Shown: positions 3,335 to 60,769 of the stretch, piece after piece
Position numbering within the stretch: the stretch's first letter is position 1
Layout: the number at the start of each line of letters is the position of its first letter
DNA from: Nitrospirota bacterium
GTDB lineage: Bacteria > Nitrospirota > Nitrospiria > JACQBW01
Reading direction: 5' to 3'
Assembly: GCA_016178585.1 (NCBI GenBank)
Contig: JACOTA010000013.1
Coordinates: 3,183-67,182, forward strand
Length of the DNA stretch: 64,000 nucleotides
The notes under the pieces: generated by a model
What the model saw: the letters and a program-made list of their open reading frames with translations, nothing else
Databases searched by the model: none
What the model was told of the DNA's origin: nothing
Position numbers and translations under genes: made by a program

Positions 3335-3350
3335 ATTTCTAATCCTTATT

Positions 3351-3439
3351 TATATTCAGGGGCCGGTGCGCCCCGCCTTCGGCGGATGCTCCGATGCCCC
3401 CCGAACCCCGCGTTCCGCACCGGCTTAGCCGGTTGCTTC
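3351..3439 (-). repeat. F1 structured intercistronic element, copy 1 (pgsA|plsY)
   Basis: Conserved ends TATTCAGGGGCC ... CCCCGAACCCCGCGTTCCGCACCGGCTTAGCCGGTTGCTTC. Confidence 0.8.
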
Positions 3440-3445
3440 CCTTAC

Positions 3446-4883: not shown

Positions 4884-4903
4884 ATATCAATCAGTCTACA
4901 ACA

Positions 4904-5029
4904 GTCCTGACGTTGAGAAGTGGTCAGTTGCCAGGCCGCAGAATCGAGGCAACGCAGGCGTACGTTAAATGTACGTTGAGGAAGCCGAGATTCGAGAACG
5001 CAGCAAATGGCCACTTATCGACGATCAGG
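4904..5029 (+). ncRNA. F3 structured element, copy a (candidate small RNA; overlaps the kdsC stop)
   Basis: About 125 nt imperfect palindrome. Closing stem CCUGACG...CGAUCAGG and internal hairpin CGUAC-7nt-GUACG. Shares about 75% identity with 32759-32886. Confidence 0.45.
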
Positions 5030-14046: not shown

Positions 14047-14727
14047 TTAAACCAACATGGCTGATTGAGACTCCGCCCAGGCGGAACTTATTTCATACCC
14101 TTTCACAATTGTTTCGAGGTTTTTCTGGAGAAGCTGTTCTTTTTTAGCGAATTTTTTCTTAATGGCTTCGTCCAACGTCGCAGTTCCGCCCGAAGCGACG
14201 TATTTTTTTCCAAACCGGTCGGCAAGCGCCTTTTCCATCGATTCCATCTTGACGATTTTTGTGGCTCCCACCAGGGCGCCTAACATGGCCATATTGGTGG
14301 CCAGTTCGGTTCCTGCGATATCCACGGCGATCTGCGTCGCGTCTATGTATAAAAGCTTTGCTTCCAACTCTCCAAGCCGGGCGGTATCTTCCTCACTGAG
14401 CAAAGGGTGATCGGTATTAATAATGACCAGCCCGCCCCGTTTCAGGCCAGAATAAAACGGCATGGTGTAACATTTTCCCTGAGTGTAGACCTGAGGGTGG
14501 TATATCATAATAATGTCGGGATAGACAATTTCGCCTCTGTCATAAATTTTTTGGTCAGCAATTCTGACATAGCTTTCCGCCGGGGCCATCCGTTTTTCAG
14601 CTCCAAAAAAGGGATTTGAAATCGCATTCCTTCCCTCTTTGTAAACGGCTGTGGCTAAAACATGCGCGGAAGTGACCGCCCCCTGTCCTCCTAACCCTGA
14701 AATTCGAACATTGATTCTTTTTCTCAT
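14047..14727 (-). CDS. 2-oxoacid:ferredoxin oxidoreductase gamma subunit, operon 1
   Basis: 226 aa. Paralogous to 33473-34174 (shared motifs GGQG, TELATNMAMLGA). Confidence 0.8.
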   Translation of the reverse strand: MRKRINVRISGLGGQGAVTSAHVLATAVYKEGRNAISNPFFGAEKRMAPAESYVRIADQKIYDRGEIVYPDIIMIYHPQVYTQGKCYTMPFYSGLKRGGLVIINTDHPLLSEEDTARLGELEAKLLYIDATQIAVDIAGTELATNMAMLGALVGATKIVKMESMEKALADRFGKKYVASGGTATLDEAIKKKFAKKEQLLQKNLETIVKGYEISSAWAESQSAMLV

Positions 14728-15644: not shown

Positions 15645-16842
15645 GGACAAGCTCCTTTTTCCTAAGATGGATTTGCTTTTTAATCTCTTCAACGATCACT
15701 TCAGGGGGCAGGGTCATTCCACCGGCAACGTGAGGGCCGGCAATCACGCGATCGTTCCGGTCAATCACCGATTTAATTTCTCTCGCCATCCAGCCGGCCA
15801 CGTTAAACTCGGGCACAAAAATGAGTTTGGCATTCTTTGTCGCCCGACGGATTTCCTCGGTGGGGAACGGACGAATGGTTTTAATTTTAACCAGTCCGAC
15901 TTTAATTCCCTCTTCGTTCAATAAACGAATCGCTTCCCGTCCTTGAGCAACCGCCGTTCCTGAAGAAACAATCAGAATGTCGGCATCGGTGTTTTCTTCT
16001 TCAATCAAGCTTCCTCCCAGGTAACGGAGCGAATATTTTCTCGACCGTTCAATGGCAGCCTTAATTTCCTGCTGCCAGCTTGCGTGGGTCGCGTAGCTGA
16101 TATAATTGCTCTTCATCACGAAGGGGTCTCTCATCATCCGGACAGGCGGAGTCTCCATATCCATACAGGGAACGGGAGAACGATAAGGGTCATAATGGGG
16201 AATACAGATGTCGGCGCCGGTTAAGGAAACCATCTCTTTGGTATGGCTGACAAAGAAACCATCGATACAAACCGCAATGGGAAGATGAACATCCGGCTGT
16301 TCAGCCACAATAAATCCTTTCAGGAGCATATCAAACAATTCCTGGGCGGTCTCAGCGTGCCAGATGAGCATTCCGGTGTCTAATAAAAATGCCATCTCCA
16401 GAGTATCCGGCTGAATATTCAAAGGTGAGTTGACACCGCGAACCATCACGTTAATCATAATGGGAAGCCTTGACCCTGCCCACATCGGAAAGTTTTCAAA
16501 CGCTCTTAACGTGCCGGGGCCTGACGTCGTGGTAAAAACCCTTGCGCCTCCAAAAGCGGCGCCGGCGCATTCACCCATCACGGCAAATTCGTTTTCACCT
16601 CTGAAATAATCCCCGACATACCCTTCTGTCCATAACTCCCCGATTAAAGCTGAAGCTTCACTCTGAGGGGTAATAGGATAAGCCACGGAGATGTCAACAC
16701 TGGCTCTCCTGATCGCCTCTTTTACCACTTCGCTCCCCGTTAAGAAAAATTCCTGCCTGGGAGCTTCGAAAAACATATATTCTGGTTGAACAAACTTTTG
16801 TCCCTTCTTATTTAACGTTCCAATCAGATTATTCCCACCCAT
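15637..16842 (-). CDS. 2-oxoacid:ferredoxin oxidoreductase alpha subunit, operon 1
   Basis: 401 aa. Pyruvate-flavodoxin/ferredoxin oxidoreductase domains. Paralogous to 35144-36400. Confidence 0.8.
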   Translation of the reverse strand: MGGNNLIGTLNKKGQKFVQPEYMFFEAPRQEFFLTGSEVVKEAIRRASVDISVAYPITPQSEASALIGELWTEGYVGDYFRGENEFAVMGECAGAAFGGARVFTTTSGPGTLRAFENFPMWAGSRLPIMINVMVRGVNSPLNIQPDTLEMAFLLDTGMLIWHAETAQELFDMLLKGFIVAEQPDVHLPIAVCIDGFFVSHTKEMVSLTGADICIPHYDPYRSPVPCMDMETPPVRMMRDPFVMKSNYISYATHASWQQEIKAAIERSRKYSLRYLGGSLIEEENTDADILIVSSGTAVAQGREAIRLLNEEGIKVGLVKIKTIRPFPTEEIRRATKNAKLIFVPEFNVAGWMAREIKSVIDRNDRVIAGPHVAGGMTLPPEVIVEEIKKQIHLRKKELVHG

Positions 16843-18647: not shown

Positions 18648-18702
18648 AAAAATAACAAAAACACCTGAATATTTTCGATAACCCGTTCGAAGGAGTCTAA
18701 TT

Positions 18703-19896
18703 ATTAATCAGCAACGGAATATCCTCATCTCTGTTTCCGGACAAGACAAACCCGGCATCACCGCCGGGTTAACCGGTCTCATTTCAACCCTGGGCGCCAA
18801 CCTGATCGATATCGAACAGGTCGTCACCCGTTCCCTTCTTTCCCTTTCCATGATCGTCAGCCTTGATTCAGAAAAAAATCACCAGGACCTGATCAAAGAG
18901 CTCCTCTTCAAAGCTCATGAACTCGGCGTTCACCTGACTTTCCATGTGCTGGAGGAAACGGAACTCAAGAAACATGCAGATAAACAGAACTTCGTCATCA
19001 CCTGTCTGGGTGAAGAGGTCAACGCTAAAGTCATCGCTAAATTAAGCGGACTTCTCTTTGAAGAAGGAATCAATATAGAAAAGATCGGAAAACTGACTCA
19101 GGATAAACTCAATTGCATAGAAATGACGATCAACACTGAGAAAAACATCAACCCCAGGGAAATGACGAAAAAGCTTCTCCATTTAAATGCCGAATTTGGC
19201 GTCGATATCGCCGTTCAAAAAGAGTCGTTGTTCCGCCGGGCAAAACGGTTAATCGTCATGGATATGGATTCCACGCTTGTTCAAATGGAAGGAATCGACG
19301 AATTGGCCAAAGAGGCCGGTGTTGGACCAAAGGTTTCGCAAATTACCGAAAGAGCCATGAACGGTGAGTTAAATTTTCAAGAGGCGTTAAGGGAACGGGT
19401 ACGTTTATTAAAAGGCCTCCCCGAGGAAACTCTTCAAAAGGTATACGCCAGAATACCCTTTACCAAAGGGGCCAAAGAGCTGGTCCGGATTTTAAAAAAA
19501 ATGGGGTATAAAACCGCGGTTTTAAGCGGAGGATTCAATTATTTTACCGATCGTCTGAAAAAAGAGCTGGGATTGGATTACGCCTACTCCAACCAGCTGG
19601 AAATCATCAATGGAAAACTGACCGGGGAAGTTTTAGGCGAAATTGTCGACGGGTTAAAAAAATCGGACCTGATGGAGGAGATCGCGGCTAAAGAGGGAAT
19701 TTCGCTCGACCAGGTTATTGCGATCGGTGATGGGGCGAATGATTTAATGATGATTGGCAAAGCCGGTTTGGGAATTGCGTTTAACGCAAAACCAAAAGTC
19801 AGGGAAGCCGCGCAATACAGTATTACCCAGAAAAATCTTGACGCCATCCTCTATTTACTGGGAATCAGTGATAAGGACGTCGCCCAGTTAAGCTGA
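18703..19896 (+). CDS. serB: Phosphoserine phosphatase with N-terminal ACT domain
   Basis: HAD motifs DMDSTL and GDGANDL. The reading frame is open from 18682 and encodes an ACT-like ILISVSGQDKPGITAGLTG upstream of the first ATG (18850), so a non-ATG start (ATT/ATC near 18700-18721, AGGAG at 18691) is likely. Confidence 0.75.
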   Translation: MNQQRNILISVSGQDKPGITAGLTGLISTLGANLIDIEQVVTRSLLSLSMIVSLDSEKNHQDLIKELLFKAHELGVHLTFHVLEETELKKHADKQNFVITCLGEEVNAKVIAKLSGLLFEEGINIEKIGKLTQDKLNCIEMTINTEKNINPREMTKKLLHLNAEFGVDIAVQKESLFRRAKRLIVMDMDSTLVQMEGIDELAKEAGVGPKVSQITERAMNGELNFQEALRERVRLLKGLPEETLQKVYARIPFTKGAKELVRILKKMGYKTAVLSGGFNYFTDRLKKELGLDYAYSNQLEIINGKLTGEVLGEIVDGLKKSDLMEEIAAKEGISLDQVIAIGDGANDLMMIGKAGLGIAFNAKPKVREAAQYSITQKNLDAILYLLGISDKDVAQLS

Positions 19897-22404: not shown

Positions 22405-22495
22405 TTATTCTTTCCAAAACGAATCATTTTTCAATAAACGCATCCATCCGATCATACTGGATTCTGTGACACCCGGTCAATCACCTTTTATCCAC

Positions 22496-22632
22496 CCAAG
22501 ACCAGCGATAGACTTCGCACCCACTTATTAATCATGTCATTGCGAGCACCGAAGGGTGCGTGGCAATCTTATCGTAAAGTCTTGAGATTGCTTCACTTTG
22601 TTCGCAATGACAGCTTTCTAACTCTGTTCTTG
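22496..22632 (-). repeat. 137-bp element, copy A (inverted relative to B and C)
   Basis: Exact reverse complement of 24706-24842. Overlaps the ABC-F stop and last 4 codons. Confidence 0.9.
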
Positions 22633-24528
22633 TTCTTCTATGACTTGAAAAAATTTTTCTTTCTCCCGATAAAGTTCGGGATCGGCCAGCATCGCGGTTA
22701 ATTCCTCAATCCGTTTGTTCTTCTGGTCCAAAACCTTTTCCAGCTCTGCCATCTGGTTTTTTTTGGAATGGTTTTTTTGAAACCGATTATTTCTTAATTC
22801 GGCTTCCAGCCGTTTCTCTTCTTTGGTTTTTCGGGAAGACCGGTTCGCGTTGTCGCCGGTTTTAAGCATCGCCCCCGGTTCTCTTATTCCGGGCGAAGCC
22901 TCGCCCACGCCATTTTGACCGGCGGCCTGAAGTTCTTTTTTGTGGAGGTAATAATCATAATCTCCAACAAAGACCTCCACCTTTCCATTAGAAACTTCTA
23001 TGATTTTGTTCGCGACGGCCCGGATCAGGTGCCGATCATGGGTAATAAGGCAATAAGTTCCTGAATATTCTTTTAAGGATTCTTCAAGGACATTCATCGA
23101 TTGAATGTCAAGATGATTGGTTGGCTCATCCAAAAGCAAAAAGTTAGCAGGTTTCACCAGCATTTTGGCTAAAGCCAAACGGCTTTTTTCACCACCGCTT
23201 AAAACGGAAACTTTTTTGAAAACATCATCGCCAGTAAATAAAAACGATCCTAAAATCCCCCGCAAAAATGACACCGGTTCCATCGGGGCCACCGTGAGTA
23301 TTTCTTCCAAAATTTGGTTTTTTGGGTTTAAAAGTTCCAGCTGATGCTGGGCATAATAAGCGGTCTGGACATGGTGGCCTAACACCCGCTCTCCTTTTTG
23401 AAACGGCGTCGCCCCGGCCAAAAGCTTTAAAAGCGTCGATTTTCCCGCGCCGTTTGGACCCACAAATGCCACTTTGTCTCCTCGTTGAAGCGTTAAATTA
23501 AGACAGGGATAAATAACATTTTGGTCATACCGCTTTTCAATGTCTTTTAATTCAATGACCACTTCTCCCGACCGAATCGGTTGAGGAAATTTAAATCTCA
23601 CCTTCTTTCGTTCAGAGGCAAGCTCGATCTTGTCCATTTTTTCAAGCATTTTAACCCGGCTTTGAACCTGGCTTGCCTTACTTGCCTTTGCGCGAAACCG
23701 CTCTATAAATTTTTCAGTATCCTCTATCTTTTTTTGCTGGTTTTGATAGGCCGAAAGAAGGATCTCCTTGGCCAGCGCCTTTGCCTTTTCATACTGGTCG
23801 TAATTTCCGGTATATTCGGTGAGTTTTTTTTGATCGGCCTCAACGACTTTTGTCACAAGATTGTTCATGAAATTCCGGTCATGGGAGATTAACACGATCG
23901 AACCCTCATATTTCCTTAGGAAACCTTCAAGCCAGAGGACCGATTCCAGATCCAAATGGTTGGTCGGTTCGTCCAAAAGAAGCAGATCAGGGCCCGAAAG
24001 CAAAAGTTTAGCCAGGGCCAGCCGCATCAGCCACCCTCCGCTGAATTCCTCGGTCTTTCGATTTAAATCTCGTTCTTTAAAACTTAAACCAAATAAAATC
24101 TTCTTCGCTTCCGTCTCTAAATTGTAGCCCCCCATATTTTCAAACCTGGTTTGAAGCTCGCCATAATATTGAATTAATTTTTCAAGCTCGTCAGGGTTCG
24201 TTGTTTCTGAAATTTCTGTTTCTAAAACTTTAAGGTGGTGCTCCAAATTTTGTGCATCGCTCGAAACCGTTAACAACTCTTCCAGGACGGTTTTTCCCTT
24301 GAAATAAGTGATGTCCTGGGGAAGATATCCAATGACCGCTTTTTTGTTTCTAACGATGGTCCCGGAGTCAGGCGGTATCATCTCGGCAATCATCAGCATT
24401 AAGGTAGACTTGCCTGCTCCGTTAGGACCAATTAAAGCAATTTTATCCTGCGGCCCTATCCGGAAAGAAATATCGGCAAAAAGGGTTCTACTACCAAAAC
24501 TTTTACAAATATTATTAAGTGAAATCAA
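22618..24528 (-). CDS. ABC-F family ATPase (Uup-like, two NBDs plus C-terminal coiled coil)
   Basis: Two Walker A motifs GPNGAGKST and two ABC signatures ([24 protein letters not shown]). Charged coiled-coil tail. The last four codons and the stop lie inside a 137-bp repeat. Confidence 0.85.
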
Positions 24529-24705
24529 TTACGTACTCCATTTTTTTCCGCTGTTTATCAGATATCCCGTCCTTTTAAAAATCACCTTTTCTGCGAAAAG
24601 GCAGGCAAATTATCTTTTTCGTTAACAGGGTCCTTCTTAAACATCATGATTTTAATAAATGGTATTCTTTTTTGTTAAGCGACGGTTTATGACATGTATC
24701 AAGCC

Positions 24706-24842
24706 CAAGAACAGAGTTAGAAAGCTGTCATTGCGAACAAAGTGAAGCAATCTCAAGACTTTACGATAAGATTGCCACGCACCCTTCGGTGCTCGCAATG
24801 ACATGATTAATAAGTGGGTGCGAAGTCTATCGCTGGTCTTGG
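24706..24842 (+). repeat. 137-bp element, copy B
   Basis: Identical to RC of copy A. Nested hairpins (GTCATTGCGA...TCGCAATGAC; GCAATCT...AGATTGC; cUUCGg). Confidence 0.9.
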
Positions 24843-28428: not shown

Positions 28429-28457
28429 GGGGAGGCCAAAAGCCTCCCTTTTTTATT
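28429..28457 (+). terminator. Rho-independent terminator (GGGAGGC-CAAAA-GCCTCCC + T6)
   Basis: 7-bp GC stem followed by TTTTTTATT. Confidence 0.55.
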
Positions 28458-28806
28458 GTGCGCCCGGCAGGGCGCACAATTTAAAAACTTGAAATCACAG
28501 ATTGTGACTTCAAGTTGGGGTGGACTGCGCCGGGCCGCCCCCTACGCCTTCACTGAGCAAGGCGTGGCTATGCTTTCAAGTGTATTGCACAGCGAGCGCG
28601 CGATTCAGGTGAATATCGCCATCATGCGGACTTTTGTCCGCCTTAAAGAAATGATAACCACCCACAAAGACCTGGCCCGCAAGCTCGATGCGCTTGAGAA
28701 GAAATATGACCAACAGTTTGCGGTAGTTTTCGAGGCTATCCGGCAATTAATGACACCTTCAAAGAGCAAATTAACTCCTATCGGGTTTCGGACGAAGAAA
28801 AAATGA
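28456..28806 (+). pseudogene. ORF6N-domain protein, 5'-truncated remnant
   Basis: [53 protein letters not shown] matches the C-terminal half of ORF6N mobile-element proteins. The N-terminal half is absent, and the reading frame begins inside a palindrome. Confidence 0.55.
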
Positions 28807-28876: not shown

Positions 28877-29146
28877 ATGAAAATCAATAAGCGCATTGTA
28901 TCCTTTTTGCTTTTTATCGCTATTCTTTGTTCGGTTCCGGCTTGGGCTGGACAGGGATGGTATCTGATGTACCCACCTTTAAAATCACAAGACCCTGATA
29001 GCTATTTATTTTATCAATTTGATTCTGAAGCCCCTCTAACAAAGTGGGAACATGTTGAGTCATTTGAGCGTGTTGAAGATTGTAAGCGTTATAAAGGTTC
29101 CGATATGGATATGGTAAACCATGAAATTGATTGCTTCATGGCATAG
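28877..29146 (+). CDS. Small secreted protein (signal peptide, two Cys)
   Basis: 89 aa. N-terminus KRIVSFLLFIAILCSVPAWA. Confidence 0.45.
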   Translation: MKINKRIVSFLLFIAILCSVPAWAGQGWYLMYPPLKSQDPDSYLFYQFDSEAPLTKWEHVESFERVEDCKRYKGSDMDMVNHEIDCFMA

Positions 29147-29592
29147 GAAACGCAGGGCAAGGATGGTATTTGATGGAGCCACCGATAGGGTCTGGCACAA
29201 CTCCGGAGGGAGGTACTATTTACTTCAGATTGAATAGTTGGATGACTTCCCCCTGGGTGTTCCCCGGAGTAAAACCCTCAATGCGGAGGGATGCTCAGAA
29301 TTTCTACAATCGGGTTTTCATTCCGGCTCTGGAGGGGGACGAAGCCAAGAAGGAGGCCAAAATTGAGGGAGTCGTGTGGCACTCACTCAGGCATACATTC
29401 GCTAGCCGGTTAGTCATGGCAGGGGTGGATTTAAGGACGGTCCAGGAGTTAATGGGACACAAGACGATAGAAATGACCCTGAGATATTCCCATTTAAGTC
29501 AAAGCCATCTAAACGAGGCAGTTTTAAGACTGGACCAAAAGAAGGTTCAGGAGCCGAAACCGGAGCAAACTCCAGTTCCAACCGCCACCTAA
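29131..29592 (+). pseudogene. Tyrosine recombinase (phage integrase) C-terminal fragment, chimeric
   Basis: The reading frame holds only the catalytic tail (HSLRHTFASRL...LMGHKTIEMTLRYSHL; R, H-x-x-R and Y present). N-terminal and core-binding domains are missing. The 5' portion repeats the AGQGWYLM segment of the upstream small gene. Confidence 0.65.
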
Positions 29593-29651
29593 ACCGCCAC
29601 CTGGTAAAAGAGGGAGATATTAAAAACACTCTAACCTATTGAAAAATAAAG

Positions 29652-29725
29652 TGCGCCTGGAGGGAATTGAACCCCCGACCTACAGATTCGGAATCTGCCA
29701 CTCTATCCAACTGAGCTACAGGCGC
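29652..29725 (-). tRNA. tRNA-Arg (anticodon CCG)
   Basis: Manual cloverleaf: 7-bp acceptor GCGCCTG/CAGGCGC, D arm, anticodon stem GCAGA/TCTGT with loop TTCCGAA, T loop TTCAATT, discriminator A. No encoded CCA. Confidence 0.85.
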
Positions 29726-29843
29726 ATTCAAGAAAAGTCATTTTAACAAAACTAATCCAGAAACTCTAATACCTTCAAAAACAATAAATCAAAACCTTAT
29801 CGACATTGCGGAACCATGTCGAGAGCAAGCTTGGTGACTCGCA

Positions 29844-29862
29844 CCAACTGAGCTACAGGCGC
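29844..29862 (-). other. tRNA-Arg 5' fragment (positions 1-19) within a diverged tandem copy of the tRNA upstream region
   Basis: CCAACTGAGCTACAGGCGC is identical to 29707-29725. About 78 bp of upstream flank is also duplicated at roughly 80% identity. Confidence 0.7.
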
Positions 29863-29958
29863 ATTATAGAAAAGTCTATTTTAACAGAACGAATCGAAAA
29901 ACTCTAATGCCCTTAAAAACAATAAATAAAAACCTTTTTAAAAAGTATTATAAAGGAT

Positions 29959-31167: not shown

Positions 31168-31286
31168 TTTTTTATTGAGGTGAGCGATACATCCACAAAC
31201 GGTTAAATATAAGGTAATTCATGGGTAGAGTAAAGAAAATTGTGGAAACACCTTGATCTGATTTTGCGCCTGCCTTATGATGTAAG

Positions 31287-31396
31287 TGAAGCATCTGGCT
31301 CTGCCAGTGACGGACTTGGGAATGGTCGTAGTGAGACCGAGCGTAACGCGGGGTTCGGGGGCATTGAGAGTGAAGTGCTCGAAGGCCTCCTGAATA
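31287..31396 (+). repeat. F1 element, copy 4 (inverted on the chromosome; precedes the + strand radical SAM gene)
   Basis: Reverse complement of the consensus. Contains one 32-bp CGGTCT..GTC sub-module. Confidence 0.8.
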
Positions 31397-31402
31397 TAAT
31401 AA

Positions 31403-32275
31403 GTGAAGCAAAATCCTAACCTTTCTAAAGCCTTTTCCGACCATCGTCGCAGTTACGATCGTAACCGGCATGTTTATCCGGTTATTTCAAGGCGGTCAAA
31501 AGGGCTGTCGATAGGGATTAATCTTAACCCCGACAAGGTCTGTAACTTCGATTGTGTTTACTGCCAGGTTGACCGACGGGCTCCAGGTCATCCACCCCTG
31601 GTCGAAATTCCTCTCATCCTCCATGAGCTTAAGGAAATCCTTGAATCGGTCATGTCGGGTCAATTTTACCTGGACCCCCGGTTTAAGGATATTCCGCGTG
31701 ATCAGCTTATTTTAAGGGATATTGCTTTTTCCGGAGACGGAGAACCTTCCACCTTTCCGCTATTTTTAGAGTTAACCCAGGGAGTGATTTCGCTGAAAAA
31801 TGAATTAGGTCTTTTCGAACTCAAGGTCGTCGTGATTACCAATGCTTCAGGTCTGGGCCGTCTGGAGGTTCAAAAAGCCCTTGACTTATTGGATAATCAT
31901 CACGGGGAAATTTGGGCCAAACTTGACGCAGGGACGGAGGCTTACTTTCATAAAATTTGCCGGACACCGTTAGGTTTTCAAAAAATCTTGAATAATATTC
32001 AGTTTGCCGCCCAAAAAAGACCTATTGTGATTCAATCCTGTTTTATGAAAATCGATGGGAAAGGACCATCAGAAGATGAATTAGAGGCTTACGCAGAACA
32101 ATTCCGGCGAATTTTGGAGAACCATGGCAAGTTAAAGCTGATCCAGATCTACACCGTTGCGCGAGTTCCTGCCGAACCCTATGTCACCCCCCTGGAGGAC
32201 CATGAGCTTGATGAAATTGTCGAACGAATAAGATTAAAAATAAATGTGCCGTTGGAAGCTTTTTACCACGCTTAA
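31403..32275 (+). CDS. Radical SAM protein
   Basis: CNFDCVYC (CxxxCxxC) near the N-terminus. GTG start immediately after a repeat element; the exact start is uncertain. Confidence 0.6.
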   Translation: MKQNPNLSKAFSDHRRSYDRNRHVYPVISRRSKGLSIGINLNPDKVCNFDCVYCQVDRRAPGHPPLVEIPLILHELKEILESVMSGQFYLDPRFKDIPRDQLILRDIAFSGDGEPSTFPLFLELTQGVISLKNELGLFELKVVVITNASGLGRLEVQKALDLLDNHHGEIWAKLDAGTEAYFHKICRTPLGFQKILNNIQFAAQKRPIVIQSCFMKIDGKGPSEDELEAYAEQFRRILENHGKLKLIQIYTVARVPAEPYVTPLEDHELDEIVERIRLKINVPLEAFYHA

Positions 32276-32758: not shown

Positions 32759-32886
32759 GTCCTGAACGTGGAGATGAGGTCAGTTGCAAGGCCGCAGCTT
32801 TGAGGGCGACGCAGGCGTACTTTGTCGGTACGTCGAGGAGACCGAAAGGCGAGAACGCAGCAAATGGCCTCGTATCAGCGTTCAGG
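32759..32886 (+). ncRNA. F3 structured element, copy b (fills a convergent intergenic gap)
   Basis: Same architecture, with compensatory changes in the closing stem. Confidence 0.45.
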
Positions 32887-33472: not shown

Positions 33473-34174
33473 CTAGGCGGTAACCTTTTGTTTCGCGGGT
33501 TTAGCCACCTGCCACCCCTGCTCAATCGCATAATGATGAGCAAAGGTAATCGCATCCATATTTTTTTGAATCAGCAGGGCTTTTTTGGCGAACTTTTTTT
33601 CAATCACGTTATCTAACGATGCGGTCCCGCCGGAAACCACAAATCCTTTACCCAAAAACCTGTCCTTGACAGATTGCTCAAGGGACACAAGATCAGGCAT
33701 TCCCATAATTCCTGCCATGGCGCCGCACATCGCCATGTTGGTCGCTAATTCTGTTCCCGCGACTTCACTGGCAATCTTGGTGGCCGGCAGATAATATACC
33801 TTGGCCTCTTTTTCCTTTAATTCTCTTTCTTCATCCTCAATAAGCGGAAGAGGCGTATCGTTGTTAATGAGAACGATTCCGCCCTGTTTAAGGCCTGAAT
33901 AAAAAGGCATCGTGTAAGACTTTCCATGGGTGATCACCTGAGAGTGGAAGATCATTAAAGCGTTCGGAAAAATGATTTCTCCAATTTCATAAATACGATC
34001 CTCGGAAATCCGCACATAACTTTCAACCGGAGCCATCCGTTTTTCAGACCCGAAAAACGGAACAAGCGTGCTTTCTCCGCCACTGACAATGACCGCATTG
34101 CTGAGAATGTGAGAAGCGGTCACCACACCCTGCCCGCCAATTCCAGCCATACGAATATTATATCGTTTCCTCAT
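33473..34174 (-). CDS. 2-oxoacid:ferredoxin oxidoreductase gamma subunit, operon 2
   Basis: 233 aa. Confidence 0.8.
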   Translation of the reverse strand: MRKRYNIRMAGIGGQGVVTASHILSNAVIVSGGESTLVPFFGSEKRMAPVESYVRISEDRIYEIGEIIFPNALMIFHSQVITHGKSYTMPFYSGLKQGGIVLINNDTPLPLIEDEERELKEKEAKVYYLPATKIASEVAGTELATNMAMCGAMAGIMGMPDLVSLEQSVKDRFLGKGFVVSGGTASLDNVIEKKFAKKALLIQKNMDAITFAHHYAIEQGWQVAKPAKQKVTA

Positions 34175-35143: not shown

Positions 35144-36400
35144 CTAAAAGCGTTTACCGCCGGCCTGAGGGAAAATATAATCCAAAATCATCTCTGTGGG
35201 CATCGACATTCCACCAAAAACACGGGGACCATCGGCAATTTCCGCGTGAGTATGCCCGTATAAGGTATTTCGCACTTCTTTGGTATGCCATCCGACATAA
35301 TTAAACTCCGGAACAATAATTCTTTTGGCATGCTTGCAAGCTTCAATTAATTCAAGTCTCGGATATGGCCGGATCGATTTTATTTTCACAAGACCGATCT
35401 TCACGCCATGATCTTCTTCAGCCTGCCGAACGGCCTCCCTGGACTGGGAAACGGCGCTTCCGGAAGCGACAATCATAATATCGGAGCCGGGATTAACGAC
35501 TTCAACTGCGCTTCCCATATATTGGTTAATATACCGGCGGGACCTTTCATGAGCGGCAAAAACTTCCTGCTGCCAGGAAGCGTGCATATGGTAACTGATA
35601 AAATTTGATTTTTGAATCGGCGCATCTCTGGAGATACGGGCCGGAGGATTTTCGTTGTCCATACAAGGTGTCGCGGCACGATAAGGATCTCTCGGAGGAA
35701 GCTTGATATCTTTAGGAGGTAATTCAACATATCCGCGGGCATGGGTCACAAAGAATCCATCGACCGCGACGACAACAGGAATATTGACATCGACTTTTTC
35801 TGTAATCATAAACGCTTTCATGGTATAGTCGAAAAAGTCTTGCTGATTTTCGGCGTGGAAAAGAAGAACTCCGGTATTTAAAAGATAGGACAGTTCAACG
35901 TTGTCCGGCTGAATGGCAAGCGGCGCATTCACCACGCGACACATCACGAGAAGAACCAGAGGCATGCGTCCTCCGGGCCATGAGGCGATCACTTCAAGGC
36001 CCCTTAAAAGGCCAGGTCCGGCTGTCGCCGTCAGCGCACGCACACCGGAACGGGATGCCCCGGAAATCGCCGACATGACACCGTATTCTTCTTCACCTCT
36101 ATAATAATCCTTTAAATAACCTTCCGCATAAAGATATCCCACCTGTTGCATCGTTTCGCTCTGAGGCGTAATCGGGTAAGAAATGGCAATATCCACATTA
36201 GAACGGCGAATCGCCTCTTTGGCTGCCTCGCTGCCGGTGATAAAAACCCTTTCCCGGGGAGCTTCAAAGAACATATGTTCAGGGGTAACAACCCGTTGTA
36301 ACGAAGCCTCGCTTACTTTTTCTTTTTTTGGCGCCTCCGCTACGGATATGACGTCCCCTTGCGGGTTTGTTTTTACTTCTGTTTCTACTCCTTCAGACAC
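35144..36400 (-). CDS. 2-oxoacid:ferredoxin oxidoreductase alpha subunit, operon 2
   Basis: 418 aa. Confidence 0.8.
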   Translation of the reverse strand: MSEGVETEVKTNPQGDVISVAEAPKKEKVSEASLQRVVTPEHMFFEAPRERVFITGSEAAKEAIRRSNVDIAISYPITPQSETMQQVGYLYAEGYLKDYYRGEEEYGVMSAISGASRSGVRALTATAGPGLLRGLEVIASWPGGRMPLVLLVMCRVVNAPLAIQPDNVELSYLLNTGVLLFHAENQQDFFDYTMKAFMITEKVDVNIPVVVAVDGFFVTHARGYVELPPKDIKLPPRDPYRAATPCMDNENPPARISRDAPIQKSNFISYHMHASWQQEVFAAHERSRRYINQYMGSAVEVVNPGSDIMIVASGSAVSQSREAVRQAEEDHGVKIGLVKIKSIRPYPRLELIEACKHAKRIIVPEFNYVGWHTKEVRNTLYGHTHAEIADGPRVFGGMSMPTEMILDYIFPQAGGKRF

Positions 36401-41513: not shown

Positions 41514-41868
41514 ATTCCTTATAATCCATTAAGTTATCCAATTCAGATGGATCAGACATTTCGATCACCGCAATCCAGCCCAATCCGTAGGGGTCTTCAT
41601 TAATCAGTTCAGGCCTTTCTTTTAATTCCTGATTAACCTCAATTATTTTTCCGCTGATAGGCGCAAGAACAGGAGAGGTCGTTTTTGTCGATTCAATTTC
41701 CATAATTTCTTCTTCAGCGCTTAATTCGATGTTGGTTTCGGGGGTTTCGATAAATACAATATCTCCGAGCGATTCCTGGGCAAAATCGGTGATGCCGATC
41801 GTCGCGCGCTTTCCCTCTTTTTTGACCCACTCATGATCTGTCGAAAATTTTAAATCTTCAGGCCGCAT
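41473..41868 (-). CDS. gcvH: Glycine cleavage system H protein
   Basis: 131 aa lipoyl domain (ESTKTTSPV). GGAGG RBS. Confidence 0.8.
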   Translation of the reverse strand: MRPEDLKFSTDHEWVKKEGKRATIGITDFAQESLGDIVFIETPETNIELSAEEEIMEIESTKTTSPVLAPISGKIIEVNQELKERPELINEDPYGLGWIAVIEMSDPSELDNLMDYKEYEEFIREEQQEED

Positions 41869-41883
41869 TAAATCCTCCTATTT

Positions 41884-41962
41884 TATATTCAGGGGTCTTC
41901 GAGAAAAACACTCTCAATGCCCCCGAACCCCGCGTTACGCACTGGCAAAGCCAGTTGCTTCA
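41884..41962 (-). repeat. F1 element, copy 5 (FAD-oxidoreductase|gcvH)
   Basis: Same conserved ends. Confidence 0.8.
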
Positions 41963-41982
41963 CTTATTAGAATTGAATATGT

Positions 41983-47924: not shown

Positions 47925-47985
47925 TAATCAGGGGCCATGGGCTGCGTTCTTGCCTCTGCGGCTTGCGACCCGCTGACCCCCCTCC

Positions 47986-52968: not shown

Positions 52969-53535
52969 TTATTTCTTTTTAATATCCTGAGAATGATAAT
53001 GCCTGAGATAACTCCGGGTAAGGTTTTTGGGGTCAACGTTTAAATATTTGGCGTATTCTGAAAGATAACTTTTTAAATAGACCTCAGCGGGAAAATTTTT
53101 AAATTGGTTTTCCTCAATTGCCACCAAATAATTCACTCCGATCCGGGTGTGTGACACCAGGTTCTGCAAGCTAATTCCCTTTTGCTCACGGAGATTTTTT
53201 AAAAAAGAACCTGTTATTGAATCGGGAAACGAAATCGGCGTTTTGAGTTCAGACTCTTTCTGAACCGGAGCCCATGGATCAGGAGAATCTGATCCTCTCG
53301 CAAGAAAGATATCATAACTTTTCCTCCGGTCAAAATCAGACAAAATGTGGTAAGCTTCCTCGATTTTCAGCCAGATGGCGGCTCTTTCTTCCTCGGAGAA
53401 AAGCGAGAGCGTTGCGAGGTTCTTTTCTCCAAAAGTCTTTTTTGCTAAAAAATAAGCGGTTTTAATCTGCTTTAAAGTCGCATCCTGCGGGACTTCGAGC
53501 AGCTCGTAATAATTAGAATCCTGGTATCTGTTCAT
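52969..53535 (-). CDS. J-domain-like protein lacking HPD, with C-terminal XRE-type HTH
   Basis: YYELLEV...AYHILSD..RRKSYD J-fold without an HPD tripeptide. C-terminal HTH GISLQNLVSHTRIGVNYLVAIE. Confidence 0.5.
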   Translation of the reverse strand: MNRYQDSNYYELLEVPQDATLKQIKTAYFLAKKTFGEKNLATLSLFSEEERAAIWLKIEEAYHILSDFDRRKSYDIFLARGSDSPDPWAPVQKESELKTPISFPDSITGSFLKNLREQKGISLQNLVSHTRIGVNYLVAIEENQFKNFPAEVYLKSYLSEYAKYLNVDPKNLTRSYLRHYHSQDIKKK

Positions 53536-53541
53536 CCATTC

Positions 53542-53616
53542 TATTCAGGGGCCTTCGCAAACGACGCTCAATGCCCCCGAACCCCGCGTTCCGCACTGGC
53601 AAAGCCAGTTGCTTCA
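53542..53616 (-). repeat. F1 element, copy 6a
   Basis: First unit of a tandem pair. Confidence 0.8.
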
Positions 53617-53623
53617 TCCATTC

Positions 53624-53794
53624 TATTCAGGGGCCTTCGCAAACGACACTCAATGCCCCCGAACCCCGCGTTCCACTCGGTCTAACTACGACCATTCCAA
53701 AGTCCGTCTCGGTCTAACTACGACCATTCCAAAGTCCGTCTCGGTCTAACGACGACCATTCCAAAGTCCGTCACTGGCAAAGCCAGTTGCTTCA
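53624..53794 (-). repeat. F1 element, copy 6b with three tandem 32-bp sub-modules (53678-53773)
   Basis: Second tandem unit. CGGTCTAACTACGACCATTCCAAAGTCCGTCT repeated three times. Confidence 0.8.
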
Positions 53795-54754
53795 CTGGAC
53801 TAAAAAGTCAAAACTTAGCTGTTCTTTTTTTAATAAGTTATGCGATATTCGATTAATCCCCTGCGCCGAAGTGGAATAGGGATATTCGAGCATCAGCGGA
53901 CGGCTCATTTTCGTTGCCCTCCATACCGAATCATCATATTCGACATAGCCTACATATTCTATCTGAATTCCAAAATATTTGGAACAGGAACTACGCATCG
54001 AAAAACCGAGCGCGATATCATCTTTTGACCGTACCTGGTTAACGATGATTTTAGGTTTGAAATTATAAATCTGTTCCTTTAATGTCCTTCCGACTTCAAA
54101 ATCGATTTTTTCCACCTGTTCGATTAAATCAAAAGGAGTTCGAATTCCCAGGTCATTTTTCTGGTCCATCGCCTGCGTAATAACGGCTTTAATCGCGGGA
54201 TCTTTGACAACTTTTTTAAACCGCCTGTAAAAAGAACTTTTGATAAACCGATAAACGTTTTCGATGGACGTCGGCTCCGGGAGGACCGTCAAAATTCCGA
54301 CATCCGAAATCAGAAAAAAATCCAAAATATTAAAAGAAGTTCCCGCCCCCAAATCAAGAATGATGTACTCAAAATCGAGTTCCTGAATCTGCCGGATAAG
54401 CTTCATTTTTTCGCGATATTTTGGATTCGCGATTTCCAAAAAATCCTGGGCCCCGCTGATTAGCGATAAATTGGGTATTTGCGTTTCGAGCAAAACTTCA
54501 TGGATGGACTTTACTTTTCCCCGTATAAAATCCGAAAGGGTGGCCCCTTTCACGGAAATTCCCAAACAGGTATGAAGATTGGCGCAGCCTAAATCCGCGT
54601 CAATTAAAATGACTTTTTTCCCTAATCGGGTGAGAGAAATCGCAAGGTTTCCGGATAAGAAGGTCTTTCCGGTTCCTCCCTTTCCTCCGCCAACGGCCCA
54701 GATTTCCCGGTTTTGCGCTTTTAATTTACCTTTAAGGATATCGACTGAAGACAT
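53792..54754 (-). CDS. MinD/ParA-family P-loop ATPase
   Basis: Deviant Walker A GGGKGGTGKT. 320 aa. Confidence 0.7.
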   Translation of the reverse strand: MSSVDILKGKLKAQNREIWAVGGGKGGTGKTFLSGNLAISLTRLGKKVILIDADLGCANLHTCLGISVKGATLSDFIRGKVKSIHEVLLETQIPNLSLISGAQDFLEIANPKYREKMKLIRQIQELDFEYIILDLGAGTSFNILDFFLISDVGILTVLPEPTSIENVYRFIKSSFYRRFKKVVKDPAIKAVITQAMDQKNDLGIRTPFDLIEQVEKIDFEVGRTLKEQIYNFKPKIIVNQVRSKDDIALGFSMRSSCSKYFGIQIEYVGYVEYDDSVWRATKMSRPLMLEYPYSTSAQGINRISHNLLKKEQLSFDFLVQ

Positions 54755-60209: not shown

Positions 60210-60231
60210 TCCTAAAATTCCTTTTCGATTA

Positions 60232-60359
60232 TATTCAGGGGCCCGTGCGGAGAAATGATTAAAACCATATGTCCGCTACGGGATCGCTCCCAAAGCAGGC
60301 TCGGAGGCTCCAAATGCCCCCGAACCCCGCGTTACGGACTGGCAAAGCCAAGTGCTTCA
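60232..60359 (-). repeat. F1 element, copy 7 (upstream of the 94-aa gene)
   Basis: Same conserved ends. TATAAT lies 3 nt upstream in transcript sense. Confidence 0.8.
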
Positions 60360-60624
60360 CTTTATTATACCCCTTTTGCTTTCAAGTCTAGCATGGAAAC
60401 TTATCAAAAAAAGCCTCTTTAAGTCAAGTTAAATCAATGACTTATTGTAATCCTTCAGTGAAACGGGGCGATACACACGAAAGGGCCTGGTGTGACCTGA
60501 ACGGAGACTTCGGCGAAGTTTGTTGATCCCTCCATAATGTAAAGTCCAGAAATGAGGATAACTTCGTCGGCGTCGGAGAGACGGTCATTCCAGGTCCTTG
60601 AAAACCCTTGACTGAATGGTTCCC

Positions 60625-60760
60625 AAGAACAGAGTTAGAAAGCTGTCATTGCGAACAAAGTGAAGCAATCTCAAGACTTTACGATAAGATTGCCACGCAC
60701 CCTTCGGTGCTCGCAATGACATGATTAATAAGTGGGTGCGAAGTCTATCGCTGGTCTAGG
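60625..60760 (+). repeat. 137-bp element, copy C
   Basis: One mismatch to copy B. Confidence 0.9.
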
Positions 60761-60769
60761 GTTGGCATA

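Follow-up and report, generated by a model that had tools for sequence, protein, structure and literature searches.

Mosaic hairpin repeats ahead of start codons in a Nitrospirota genome

Small non-coding repeats that can form RNA hairpins have been described in several bacteria. The BOX elements of Streptococcus pneumoniae (boxA-boxB(n)-boxC; PMC3049150) are composite, intergenic and multi-copy, with conserved end modules and variable tandem internal modules. Their ends are terminal inverted repeats related to an insertion sequence (IS), stable RNA stem-loops are predicted when they are co-transcribed, and they are found nested with other repeat families. The REP/BIME/REPIN-RAYT repeats of Proteobacteria (PMC2817692, PMC3116915, PMC3184786) are GC-rich intergenic hairpins, mosaic and high in copy number, which can act as mRNA hairpins when transcribed. 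They have a 'master' sequence that is conserved over long vertical descent, and their mobilization is presumed to be single-stranded and directed by the hairpins. The ERIC/IRU and Correia (NEMIS) repeats (PMC2229807, PMC10969869, PMC3049150 background) are small repeats in transcribed operon spacers that form RNA hairpins, with an effect on the mRNA that depends on orientation. Here we investigate a repeat family in a 64,000-nt stretch, hereafter the window, of contig JACOTA010000013.1 (positions 3,183 to 67,182; assembly GCA_016178585.1) of a Nitrospirota bacterium, with particular attention to the unit in the spacer between an FAD-protein gene and gcvH (unit 5).

An earlier note on this DNA had listed eight units, all locked in one orientation between a stop codon and the next start, and had likened them to REP/BIME-type or miniature inverted-repeat transposable elements (MITE), perhaps recruited as an RNA module. 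Are these units a repeat that is transcribed only because of where it sits? Or, does the RNA that they encode do something for the genes around it? On balance we regard the family as mosaic repeats of the general REP/BIME/BOX kind that are dispersed, non-autonomous and transcribed together with the genes that host them, with a probability of roughly 0.55. Its architecture is closest to BOX and its dynamics are closest to REP/REPIN populations. The near-absolute sense orientation, the placement before start codons, the lack of terminal inverted repeats and the high identity of copies between distant species are its unusual traits.

Architecture of the units

The core 20-mer ATGCCCCCGAACCCCGCGTT matches the window eight times, seven times exactly and once with a one-base insertion, where shuffled sequences lead one to expect no match. 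The other conserved end, TATTCAGGGGCC, is found at the distance from the core given in the earlier note in all eight units; it is exact in six, with one mismatch at 41886 and two mismatches at 31385. The eight units and both of their ends are thus as first described. As first written, ATGCCCCCGAACCCCGCGTT lies on the + strand in seven copies and on the - strand in one, and the neighbouring genes are on the strand opposite to the motif. Read in mRNA sense, each unit runs (A)AG-UGAAGCA ... AACGCGGGGUUCGGGGGCAU ... GGCCCCUGAAUA. A covariance model built from ten copies finds exactly these eight units (56-101 bits), plus the detached 5' end of a long unit, and has no other match above 15 bits in the window. 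Unit lengths are 75, 77, 87, 88, 108, 110, 128 and 171 nt.

Folded on the sense strand, most copies have the same architecture. After (A)AG-UGAAGCA there is a first hairpin, P1, with the consensus GCA.CNGGC-NNN-GCCNGUGC. An unpaired conserved linker, (G)RAACGCGGG, leads to P2, a 10-bp stem (GUUCGGGGGC / GCCCCUGAAU) that closes an interchangeable inner hairpin, and P2 is followed by an A/U-rich tail, UANAAU..(A)AG(G). Some units also have a 32-nt B module between P1 and the core, in 0, 1 or 3 copies, in which case the linker lies between the B modules and P2. The earlier note had placed the length variation in the core. The inner hairpin does vary, with at least four unrelated types: a short UGAGNG...CNCGAAG hairpin, D2 (units 1 and 2), D3 (unit 7) and D4 (unit 3). 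The extra length of the units at 31287 (unit 4) and 53624-53794 (unit 6b), however, is due to the insertion of one and three B modules, respectively, and not to a larger variable core.

The units and their parts are listed here with their covariance model scores. Gaps to the next open reading frame (ORF) are counted from the last A of CUGAAUA, and flanking genes are named by Pfam, which agrees with the names given earlier.

41882..41965, - strand: unit 5 (focal), spacer between an FAD-protein gene and gcvH, 20 nt from the upstream stop and 17 nt to the ORF start; 96.3 bits
41962-41956: UGAAGCA of unit 5 (parts in mRNA sense)
41958-41939: P1 hairpin of unit 5
41938-41929: unpaired conserved linker of unit 5
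41928-41919: P2 5' strand of unit 5
41918-41896: inner variable hairpin of unit 5
41895-41887: P2 3' strand of unit 5
3' end of unit 5: A/U tail and AGGAGG, up to the AUG at 41868
3349..3443, - strand: unit 1, pgsA/plsY spacer, D2-type inner hairpin, 5 nt from the upstream stop and 16 nt to the ORF start; 77 bits
11426..11519, - strand: unit 2, lepA/lepB spacer, D2-type inner hairpin, 13 nt from the upstream stop and 21 nt to the ORF start; 82.9 bits
20531..20645, - strand: unit 3, deacetylase/VOC spacer, D4-type inner hairpin, 6 nt from the upstream stop and 7 nt to the ORF start; 64.8 bits
31284..31400, + strand (the sole + strand unit): unit 4, radical SAM leader in a divergent MFS(-)/radical SAM(+) region without an upstream stop, 6 nt to the ORF start; 56.5 bits
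31309-31341: the one 32-nt B module of unit 4
53538..53619, - strand: unit 6a, downstream member of a tandem pair in the MinD/ParA-like/DnaJ-HTH spacer, 6 nt ahead of the DnaJ-HTH ORF start; 101.3 bits
53620..53797, - strand: unit 6b, upstream member of the pair, with the TGA stop of the MinD/ParA-like gene as its first 3 nt; split by the model into 53620-53688 (60 bits) and 53758-53797 (23 bits)
53676-53771: three 32-nt B modules of unit 6b between P1 and core, as tandem 32-nt repeats
60228..60362, - strand: unit 7, leader of a 94-aa ORF in a divergent 94-aa ORF(-)/pgpA(+) region without an upstream stop, long D3-type inner domain, 22 nt to the ORF start; 63.7 bits
61170-61201, + strand: solo B module of 32 nt with a GGAAUGGUCGUAGUUAGACC hairpin, in the convergent spacer after pgpA, outside any full unit
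47925..47985, - strand: possible mini relative (uncertain) in the ispD/ispF spacer, a G-run and hairpins followed by GGCCCCUGAUUA

The last of these resembles the P2 and tail half of a unit, lacks both P1 and the conserved linker, and is not detected by the covariance model.

The solo B module indicates that this module exists independently of the full unit. The inner types likewise recur elsewhere. The D2 core is 95% identical in two other species (contigs L018 and L019), and L018 also has a 39-nt match to the D4 core at 95% identity, reverse-complemented inside a different palindromic repeat. The long D3 type of unit 7 is apparently also present in the metagenome contig L008, judged by eye, with no match between the two by blastn-short. 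Because inner types recur in other genomes and repeats and the B module occurs on its own, the element is a mosaic of smaller hairpin modules.

P1 and P2 have both been kept. In 21 copies drawn from several genomes, 93.5% of cells are paired, and six of the 16 pairs have changes on both sides; the second P1 pair, for example, is U-A, C-G or A-U. Both values were reached by none of 500 shuffles, which is supportive but not proof, since related copies were aligned by fitting them to the model. In 18 of 19 copies folding favours the sense over the antisense strand, by a mean of 8.4 kcal/mol; G·U pairs number 2-12 per copy in the sense fold and 0-3 in the antisense fold. Unit 5 folds with -33.4 kcal/mol (z = -3.4).

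All eight window units are sense to their downstream gene. They end close before its start codon, as had been claimed, with observed gaps of 6-22 nt. The claim that each unit begins 0-20 nt after an upstream stop is borne out at five loci, including 53794, where the TGA of the MinD-like gene forms the first bases of unit 6b. It fails at the loci 31287-31396 and 60232-60359, where units 4 and 7 occupy 5' leaders in divergent regions; that pgpA beside unit 7 is on the + strand was confirmed by Pfam. A promoter-like TTGATC-17-TATGAT ends at 31281, six bases ahead of unit 4, which would make this unit the very 5' end of its transcript. Directly after unit 4, at 31402-31413, AAGUGAAGCAAAAUCC repeats the 5' motif of the unit. 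It supplies the GTG of the called radical SAM start (31403), without a Shine-Dalgarno sequence, and the true start of that gene is uncertain.

Distribution, decay and conservation

A 'Nitrospirae bacterium' metagenome-assembled genome (MAG) encodes a protein identical to the LepA of the window, and the window is 99.93% identical to contig JACPZL010000111.1 of GCA_016195515.1 (L013). The nearest named relatives are Candidatus Manganitrophaceae, with LepA identity of about 74-75%. When genome contigs were scanned with the exact 20-mer, only one other species was found, the Nitrospiria MAG SMAG_U11475 (L001, L002), together with one chance match in a high-GC genome (L003). A metagenome scan with the exact core returned the same loci plus L008, and few metagenome contigs overall. 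By tblastx, L001, L002 and L008 match the window only in the element, among the matches listed. The repeat family is carried by a Nitrospirota clade close to Manganitrophaceae. The core also interrupts short-read contigs from the population of the window: L004 breaks off at 41935, and both L014 and L015 at 11469 (unit 2), as fits a high-copy repeat. It is probably because short-read contigs stop inside the core that so few copies are present in public assemblies.

Orientation was counted over the window, L001, L002, L008, L009, L016, L018 and L019, with two multi-species junctions collapsed. The 19 occupied spacers reduce to 15 independent sites, 14 of them sense and one antisense (two-sided binomial p ~0.001). 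The lock that the earlier note saw in every copy is complete in the window (8/8) but is broken in L009 by one divergent D4-type copy after tRNA-Pro (18681-18792), which is antisense to both neighbours. This copy is without the sense/antisense folding asymmetry. Adjacent units are always head-to-tail, in the window at 53538-53797, in L001 at 496-659 and 746-975, in L002 at 2765-2930 and in L018 at 196-371.

Comparison at shared junctions indicates that units come and go. L009 and L010 are syntenic relatives with LepA 85% and 83% identical to that of the window. In both, the junctions that hold units 1 and 2 are empty, with spacers of 3-30 nt, and in L009 a unit exactly fills the kdsC/lpxL spacer instead (45 bits). 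In SMAG_U11475 there are six units, all sense, inside the tuf-rpmG-tRNA-Trp-secE-nusG cluster. At secE/nusG in this cluster L001 has an intact unit (101 bits) and L016, from the window's own population, a decayed one (25 bits); in L019 and L020 only P1 is left, and L018 has none. The rpmG/tRNA-Trp junction, on the other hand, is occupied in three species (L001, L018 and L019), and each time the tRNA begins directly after the unit; in L019 this unit has a compensatory change in P2 from C-G to U-A. Units have been gained, lost and degraded, and no single junction requires one, because relatives lack, truncate or decay units at shared sites.

A short form is also present at the lepA/lepB junction of L011 (GCA_043738365.1; 92-94% nucleotide identity). 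Here, at 2647-2681, there is only a 35-nt mini element, CAGGCTTTTTGAACAGCCTGAAATAAATATTTAAG, at the site of unit 2 of the window. Its tail aligns with the CCTGAATAAAATAAGG tail of the unit, and it may have arisen from a unit by deletion or represent a precursor form.

Conservation between species is high for some copies and low for others. With species divergence measured through nusG third-codon positions, a window unit and a SMAG_U11475 unit are 94.9% identical over 79 nt at a third-codon identity of 41%, and the tRNA-adjacent unit is 85% identical between L018 and L019 at a third-codon identity of 51%. The neighbouring upstream unit at the rpmG/tRNA-Trp locus has drifted to 47-63% identity. 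That consensus-like copies exist side by side with decayed ones suggests that a family master sequence is constrained and the single loci are not. Such constraint could come from recognition by a mobilizing enzyme or from concerted evolution, and RNA function could contribute to conservation at least at some loci.

Known classes and neighbouring repeats

Rfam at gathering thresholds finds only a tRNA-Arg in the window, and nothing matches the tandem pair (53400-53900) even with E relaxed to 10. In the units ARAGORN finds no tRNA, and a literature search for the core sequence found no paper containing it. As far as these searches reach, the family is uncatalogued.

How does it compare with the described classes? 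With BOX it shares the composite, intergenic, multi-copy make-up, the predicted stem-loops, the nesting with other repeats and, in the B module, the tandem internal module of variable copy number between conserved ends. The searches that were run returned no similarity to BOX; a direct comparison with boxA/B/C was not made. BOX differs in having terminal inverted repeats, and in being, like the RUP and SPRITE repeats of pneumococcus, over-represented between convergent genes (PMC3049150, Table 1). The units studied here are absent from such spacers and are sense-locked before starts. The likeness to REP/REPIN-RAYT populations lies in the GC-rich intergenic hairpins, the mosaic make-up, the high copy number, the conserved master sequence, the presumed manner of spread and the capacity to act as hairpins in mRNA. 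Unlike REP sequences, which are palindromes of 20-40 nt typically arranged as inverted doublets, the units are 75-171 nt long, non-palindromic overall and, where adjacent, head-to-tail. In place of a REP palindrome with a GTAG head there is P1, a 20-nt hairpin preceded by GUGAAGCA. The ERIC and Correia repeats resemble the family as small hairpin-forming repeats of transcribed operon spacers with orientation-dependent effects, but have terminal inverted repeats and TA target duplications and are found in both orientations; the family has neither of the first two and is nearly always sense.

The units are small, non-coding, multi-copy and polymorphic for presence or absence, as MITE are. They do not have the terminal inverted repeats of MITE. 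Their 5' end UGAAGCAAC is not the reverse complement of their 3' end GCCCCUGAAUA, P2 is an internal stem, P1 is a separate 5' hairpin, and a repeat search found no terminal inverted pair within the unit. The earlier assignment to a REP/BIME-type or MITE-like element accordingly stands in so far as this is a dispersed element, with empty sites, occupancy of other junctions, decay and mosaic structure. It does not stand for inverted doublets or terminal inverted repeats.

Several other identities were tried and rejected. The units are not coding sequence, since their lengths preserve no reading frame, nor are they intrinsic terminators, as AAUAUAAA follows P2 in sense and scans of units 4 and 7 on both strands found no terminator-like site; on both points the earlier note was right. 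The core is absent from viral contigs, which speaks against phage origin. Kink-turn, hepatitis delta virus-like and hammerhead-like readings of the core, tried by eye, did not fit. An outward promoter in the tail (TANAAT box) would begin transcription at or after the Shine-Dalgarno sequence in unit 5. Integron attC sites do not agree with flanks that are conserved housekeeping operons, syntenic with relatives lacking the unit, and the sole integrase-like ORF is a truncated fragment beside tRNA-Arg. A long target-site duplication was also set aside, as only unit 2 stands out and part of its similarity is lepA coding sequence, conserved in L011. Flank alignments scored 6.3 within the same copy versus 5.1 across copies, a noisy comparison in which automatic boundaries misplaced several 5' ends. 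By eye, units 1 and 7 have TATAAATA(A)GG and TATAAT on both sides, and the same AT-rich motif is common to all copies.

Two further repeat families are present in the window. The second, of about 140 nt and 99-100% identical between copies, is found at 22494-22637 (-), 24701-24842 (+) and 60622-60762 (+), sense-oriented just upstream of the genes for a TPR protein, PilZ and pgpA. Two of these copies form 142-nt inverted repeats around an ABC-F gene (22618-24528). This family contains AAAGTGAAGCAATCT, the same 5' motif as the units studied here, and then a different hairpin; a related copy lies in the rplK/rplA spacer of L019, and contig L013 ends in the repeat. The third family is a long near-palindromic filler of the kdsC/lpxL spacer (window 4884-5014), the junction that is occupied in L009 by a unit of the studied family. 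A partial copy, 79% identical, lies at 32805-32886 between two + strand genes, and a relative in L018 at about 1760-1900 contains the reverse complement of the D4 hairpin of unit 3.

Two other features of the window were noted. The segment 28456-29936 is likely the remnant of an element integrated at a tRNA, with tRNA-Arg(CCG) at 29651-29725 (-), a partial tRNA duplicate at 29837-29881 (84%) and 59-nt direct repeats at 29740-29798 and 29878-29936; beside them are a truncated phage-integrase ORF (29131-29592) and an ORF6N fragment (28456-28806). DNA repeats of 71-73% identity (14410-14614 with 33857-34061, and 16043-16107 with 35541-35605) represent two paralogous 2-oxoacid:ferredoxin oxidoreductase clusters (POR_N, TPP_enzyme_C and POR domains), the second identified by Pfam on the window and the first by precomputed Pfam on the 99.93%-identical L013.

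Readings of the family

If the family is a dispersed repeat, its distribution might be accounted for as follows. Copies would land in, or survive only in, the short AT-rich stretch that runs from a stop codon or -10 box to the next ribosome-binding site, and would there be transcribed passively as intercistronic or 5'-leader hairpins, almost always in sense. Their spread may be strand-specific and directed by the hairpins, in the style of a single-strand-DNA transposase; the lack of terminal inverted repeats, the sub-terminal hairpins, the one favoured strand and the conserved short flank suggest this. Selection would then remove copies that disturb expression, which would explain both the sense lock and a tail that leaves an open A/U-rich, Shine-Dalgarno-like start region. 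Either the insertion mechanism or selection against antisense insertions in operons could produce the sense lock, and the two could also act together. Neither the 46 window ORFs scanned with Pfam nor those covered by the precomputed Pfam annotation of L013 showed a transposase domain, as fits a non-autonomous element.

Several observations weigh against a dispersed, passively transcribed repeat. No mobilizing gene, such as one for a Y1/HUH transposase or RAYT, was seen in the 64-kb window, and no clean target-site duplication or excision footprint can be defined, the flanks sharing only an AT-rich TAWAAW(A)AG-like motif. The window has eight convergent spacers, the kind of place where selfish repeats usually accumulate (compare PMC3049150), and all eight are free of units. 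The unpaired linker is among the best conserved parts of the unit, and together with cross-species identities of 85-95% it amounts to more constraint than is seen in most selfish repeats and would fit a host-level RNA function. Finally, the shared occupancy of rpmG/tRNA-Trp with its compensatory P2 change hints at long retention at that locus.

The main alternative is that the units are domesticated cis-acting RNA modules. They might be processing or 'punctuation' sites, protective stem-loops for the flanking cistrons (5' for the downstream cistron, 3' for the upstream one), or portable translation-start regions made of the open A/U tail and a Shine-Dalgarno-like AAGG. The sense orientation at 14 of 15 independent sites, the constant position 6-22 nt before window start codons, the absence from convergent spacers, the G·U-based structure favoured on the sense strand only and the covariation in P1 and P2 all agree with it. 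So do an invariant unpaired linker and a conserved core amid peripheral hairpins of variable length, as in functional RNAs, the 85-95% identity across species with near-saturated synonymous sites, and the enrichment in the tuf-rpmG-tRNA-Trp-secE-nusG cluster, where units abut the 5' end of tRNA-Trp in three species. Against this, close relatives do without a unit, with spacers of 3-30 nt, at junctions that are occupied in the window, and shared sites include decayed or truncated copies. The genes downstream have no function in common, a divergent copy runs antisense to the genes on both sides, and no known RNA family matches. We consider domestication rather unlikely, yet a rival of real weight. 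A hybrid, in which the units are mobile 'cistron leaders', is more speculative and to our minds improbable. Such a transposable RNA-level cassette would insert in a transcription-coupled manner, for example via the exposed non-template strand; the downstream cistron would gain a protective, processable 5' stem-loop and an open A/U-rich start, and selection at the level of the lineage would keep it. This would explain the sense lock, the sense-only G·U structure, the invariant linker and the high identity across species.

Could the orientation instead follow replication? Palindrome-associated elements derived from IS200/IS605 have no terminal inverted repeats, carry hairpins near both ends, are strand-specific and have a short flank motif. 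The units are alike in their lack of inverted repeats, in the hairpins near both ends, in the single strand that favours the structure and in the 5' flank motif (A)AG-UGAAGCA, and seven of the eight lie on the G-rich strand. A derivative of this type, or of the REP/RAYT type, might insert into the lagging-strand template, and the gene lock would then be a by-product of most genes being on the leading strand. GC skew is negative over the whole window, so that the - strand, with seven of eight units and 48 of 67 ORFs, is probably leading-strand sequence. The fit is slightly better to gene than to strand, as the sole + strand unit (31284-31400) breaks the strand rule but agrees with its + gene; with only eight units, though, 8/8 by gene and 7/8 by strand are statistically inseparable, and the window alone cannot separate the two rules. 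L009 also speaks against a replication rule: in 2.4 kb of a gene block that runs in one direction, it has one copy on each strand. Neither TnpA/TnpB nor a Y1/HUH transposase was found in the window, and the tetranucleotide rules for cleavage and guide sequences are not recognizable. We think it decidedly doubtful that replication sets the orientation. The units might also be a new RNA with catalytic or ligand-binding activity, for instance a ribozyme that cleaves itself or a tRNA-like punctuation signal for RNase P/Z between cistrons. This would account for conserved unpaired nucleotides between two helices, free length variation in the distal stems only, two conserved G-runs that compete for one C-run, the contact with tRNA-Trp in three species, and GCGGGGUUCG, which read by eye can be likened to the 5' half of a T-arm. 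Yet Rfam has no ribozyme, riboswitch or tRNA-like match even at E = 10, ARAGORN sees no tRNA in the units, and decayed copies with presence/absence polymorphism argue against an essential role. We take this to be a very remote prospect.

What the family means for these bacteria depends on which of these readings is right. If it is only selfish, as the dispersed-repeat reading would have it, then transcription filters the orientation of a bacterial repeat that has no inverted ends. The family would also point to a strand-specific mobilizing enzyme in Nitrospirota and explain the breaks in short-read assemblies at gene junctions in these genomes. If, on the other hand, the sense lock and the start-adjacent placement are functional, the units would be a portable RNA module that punctuates or stabilizes operon transcripts across a whole bacterial lineage, and a natural part for operon engineering.

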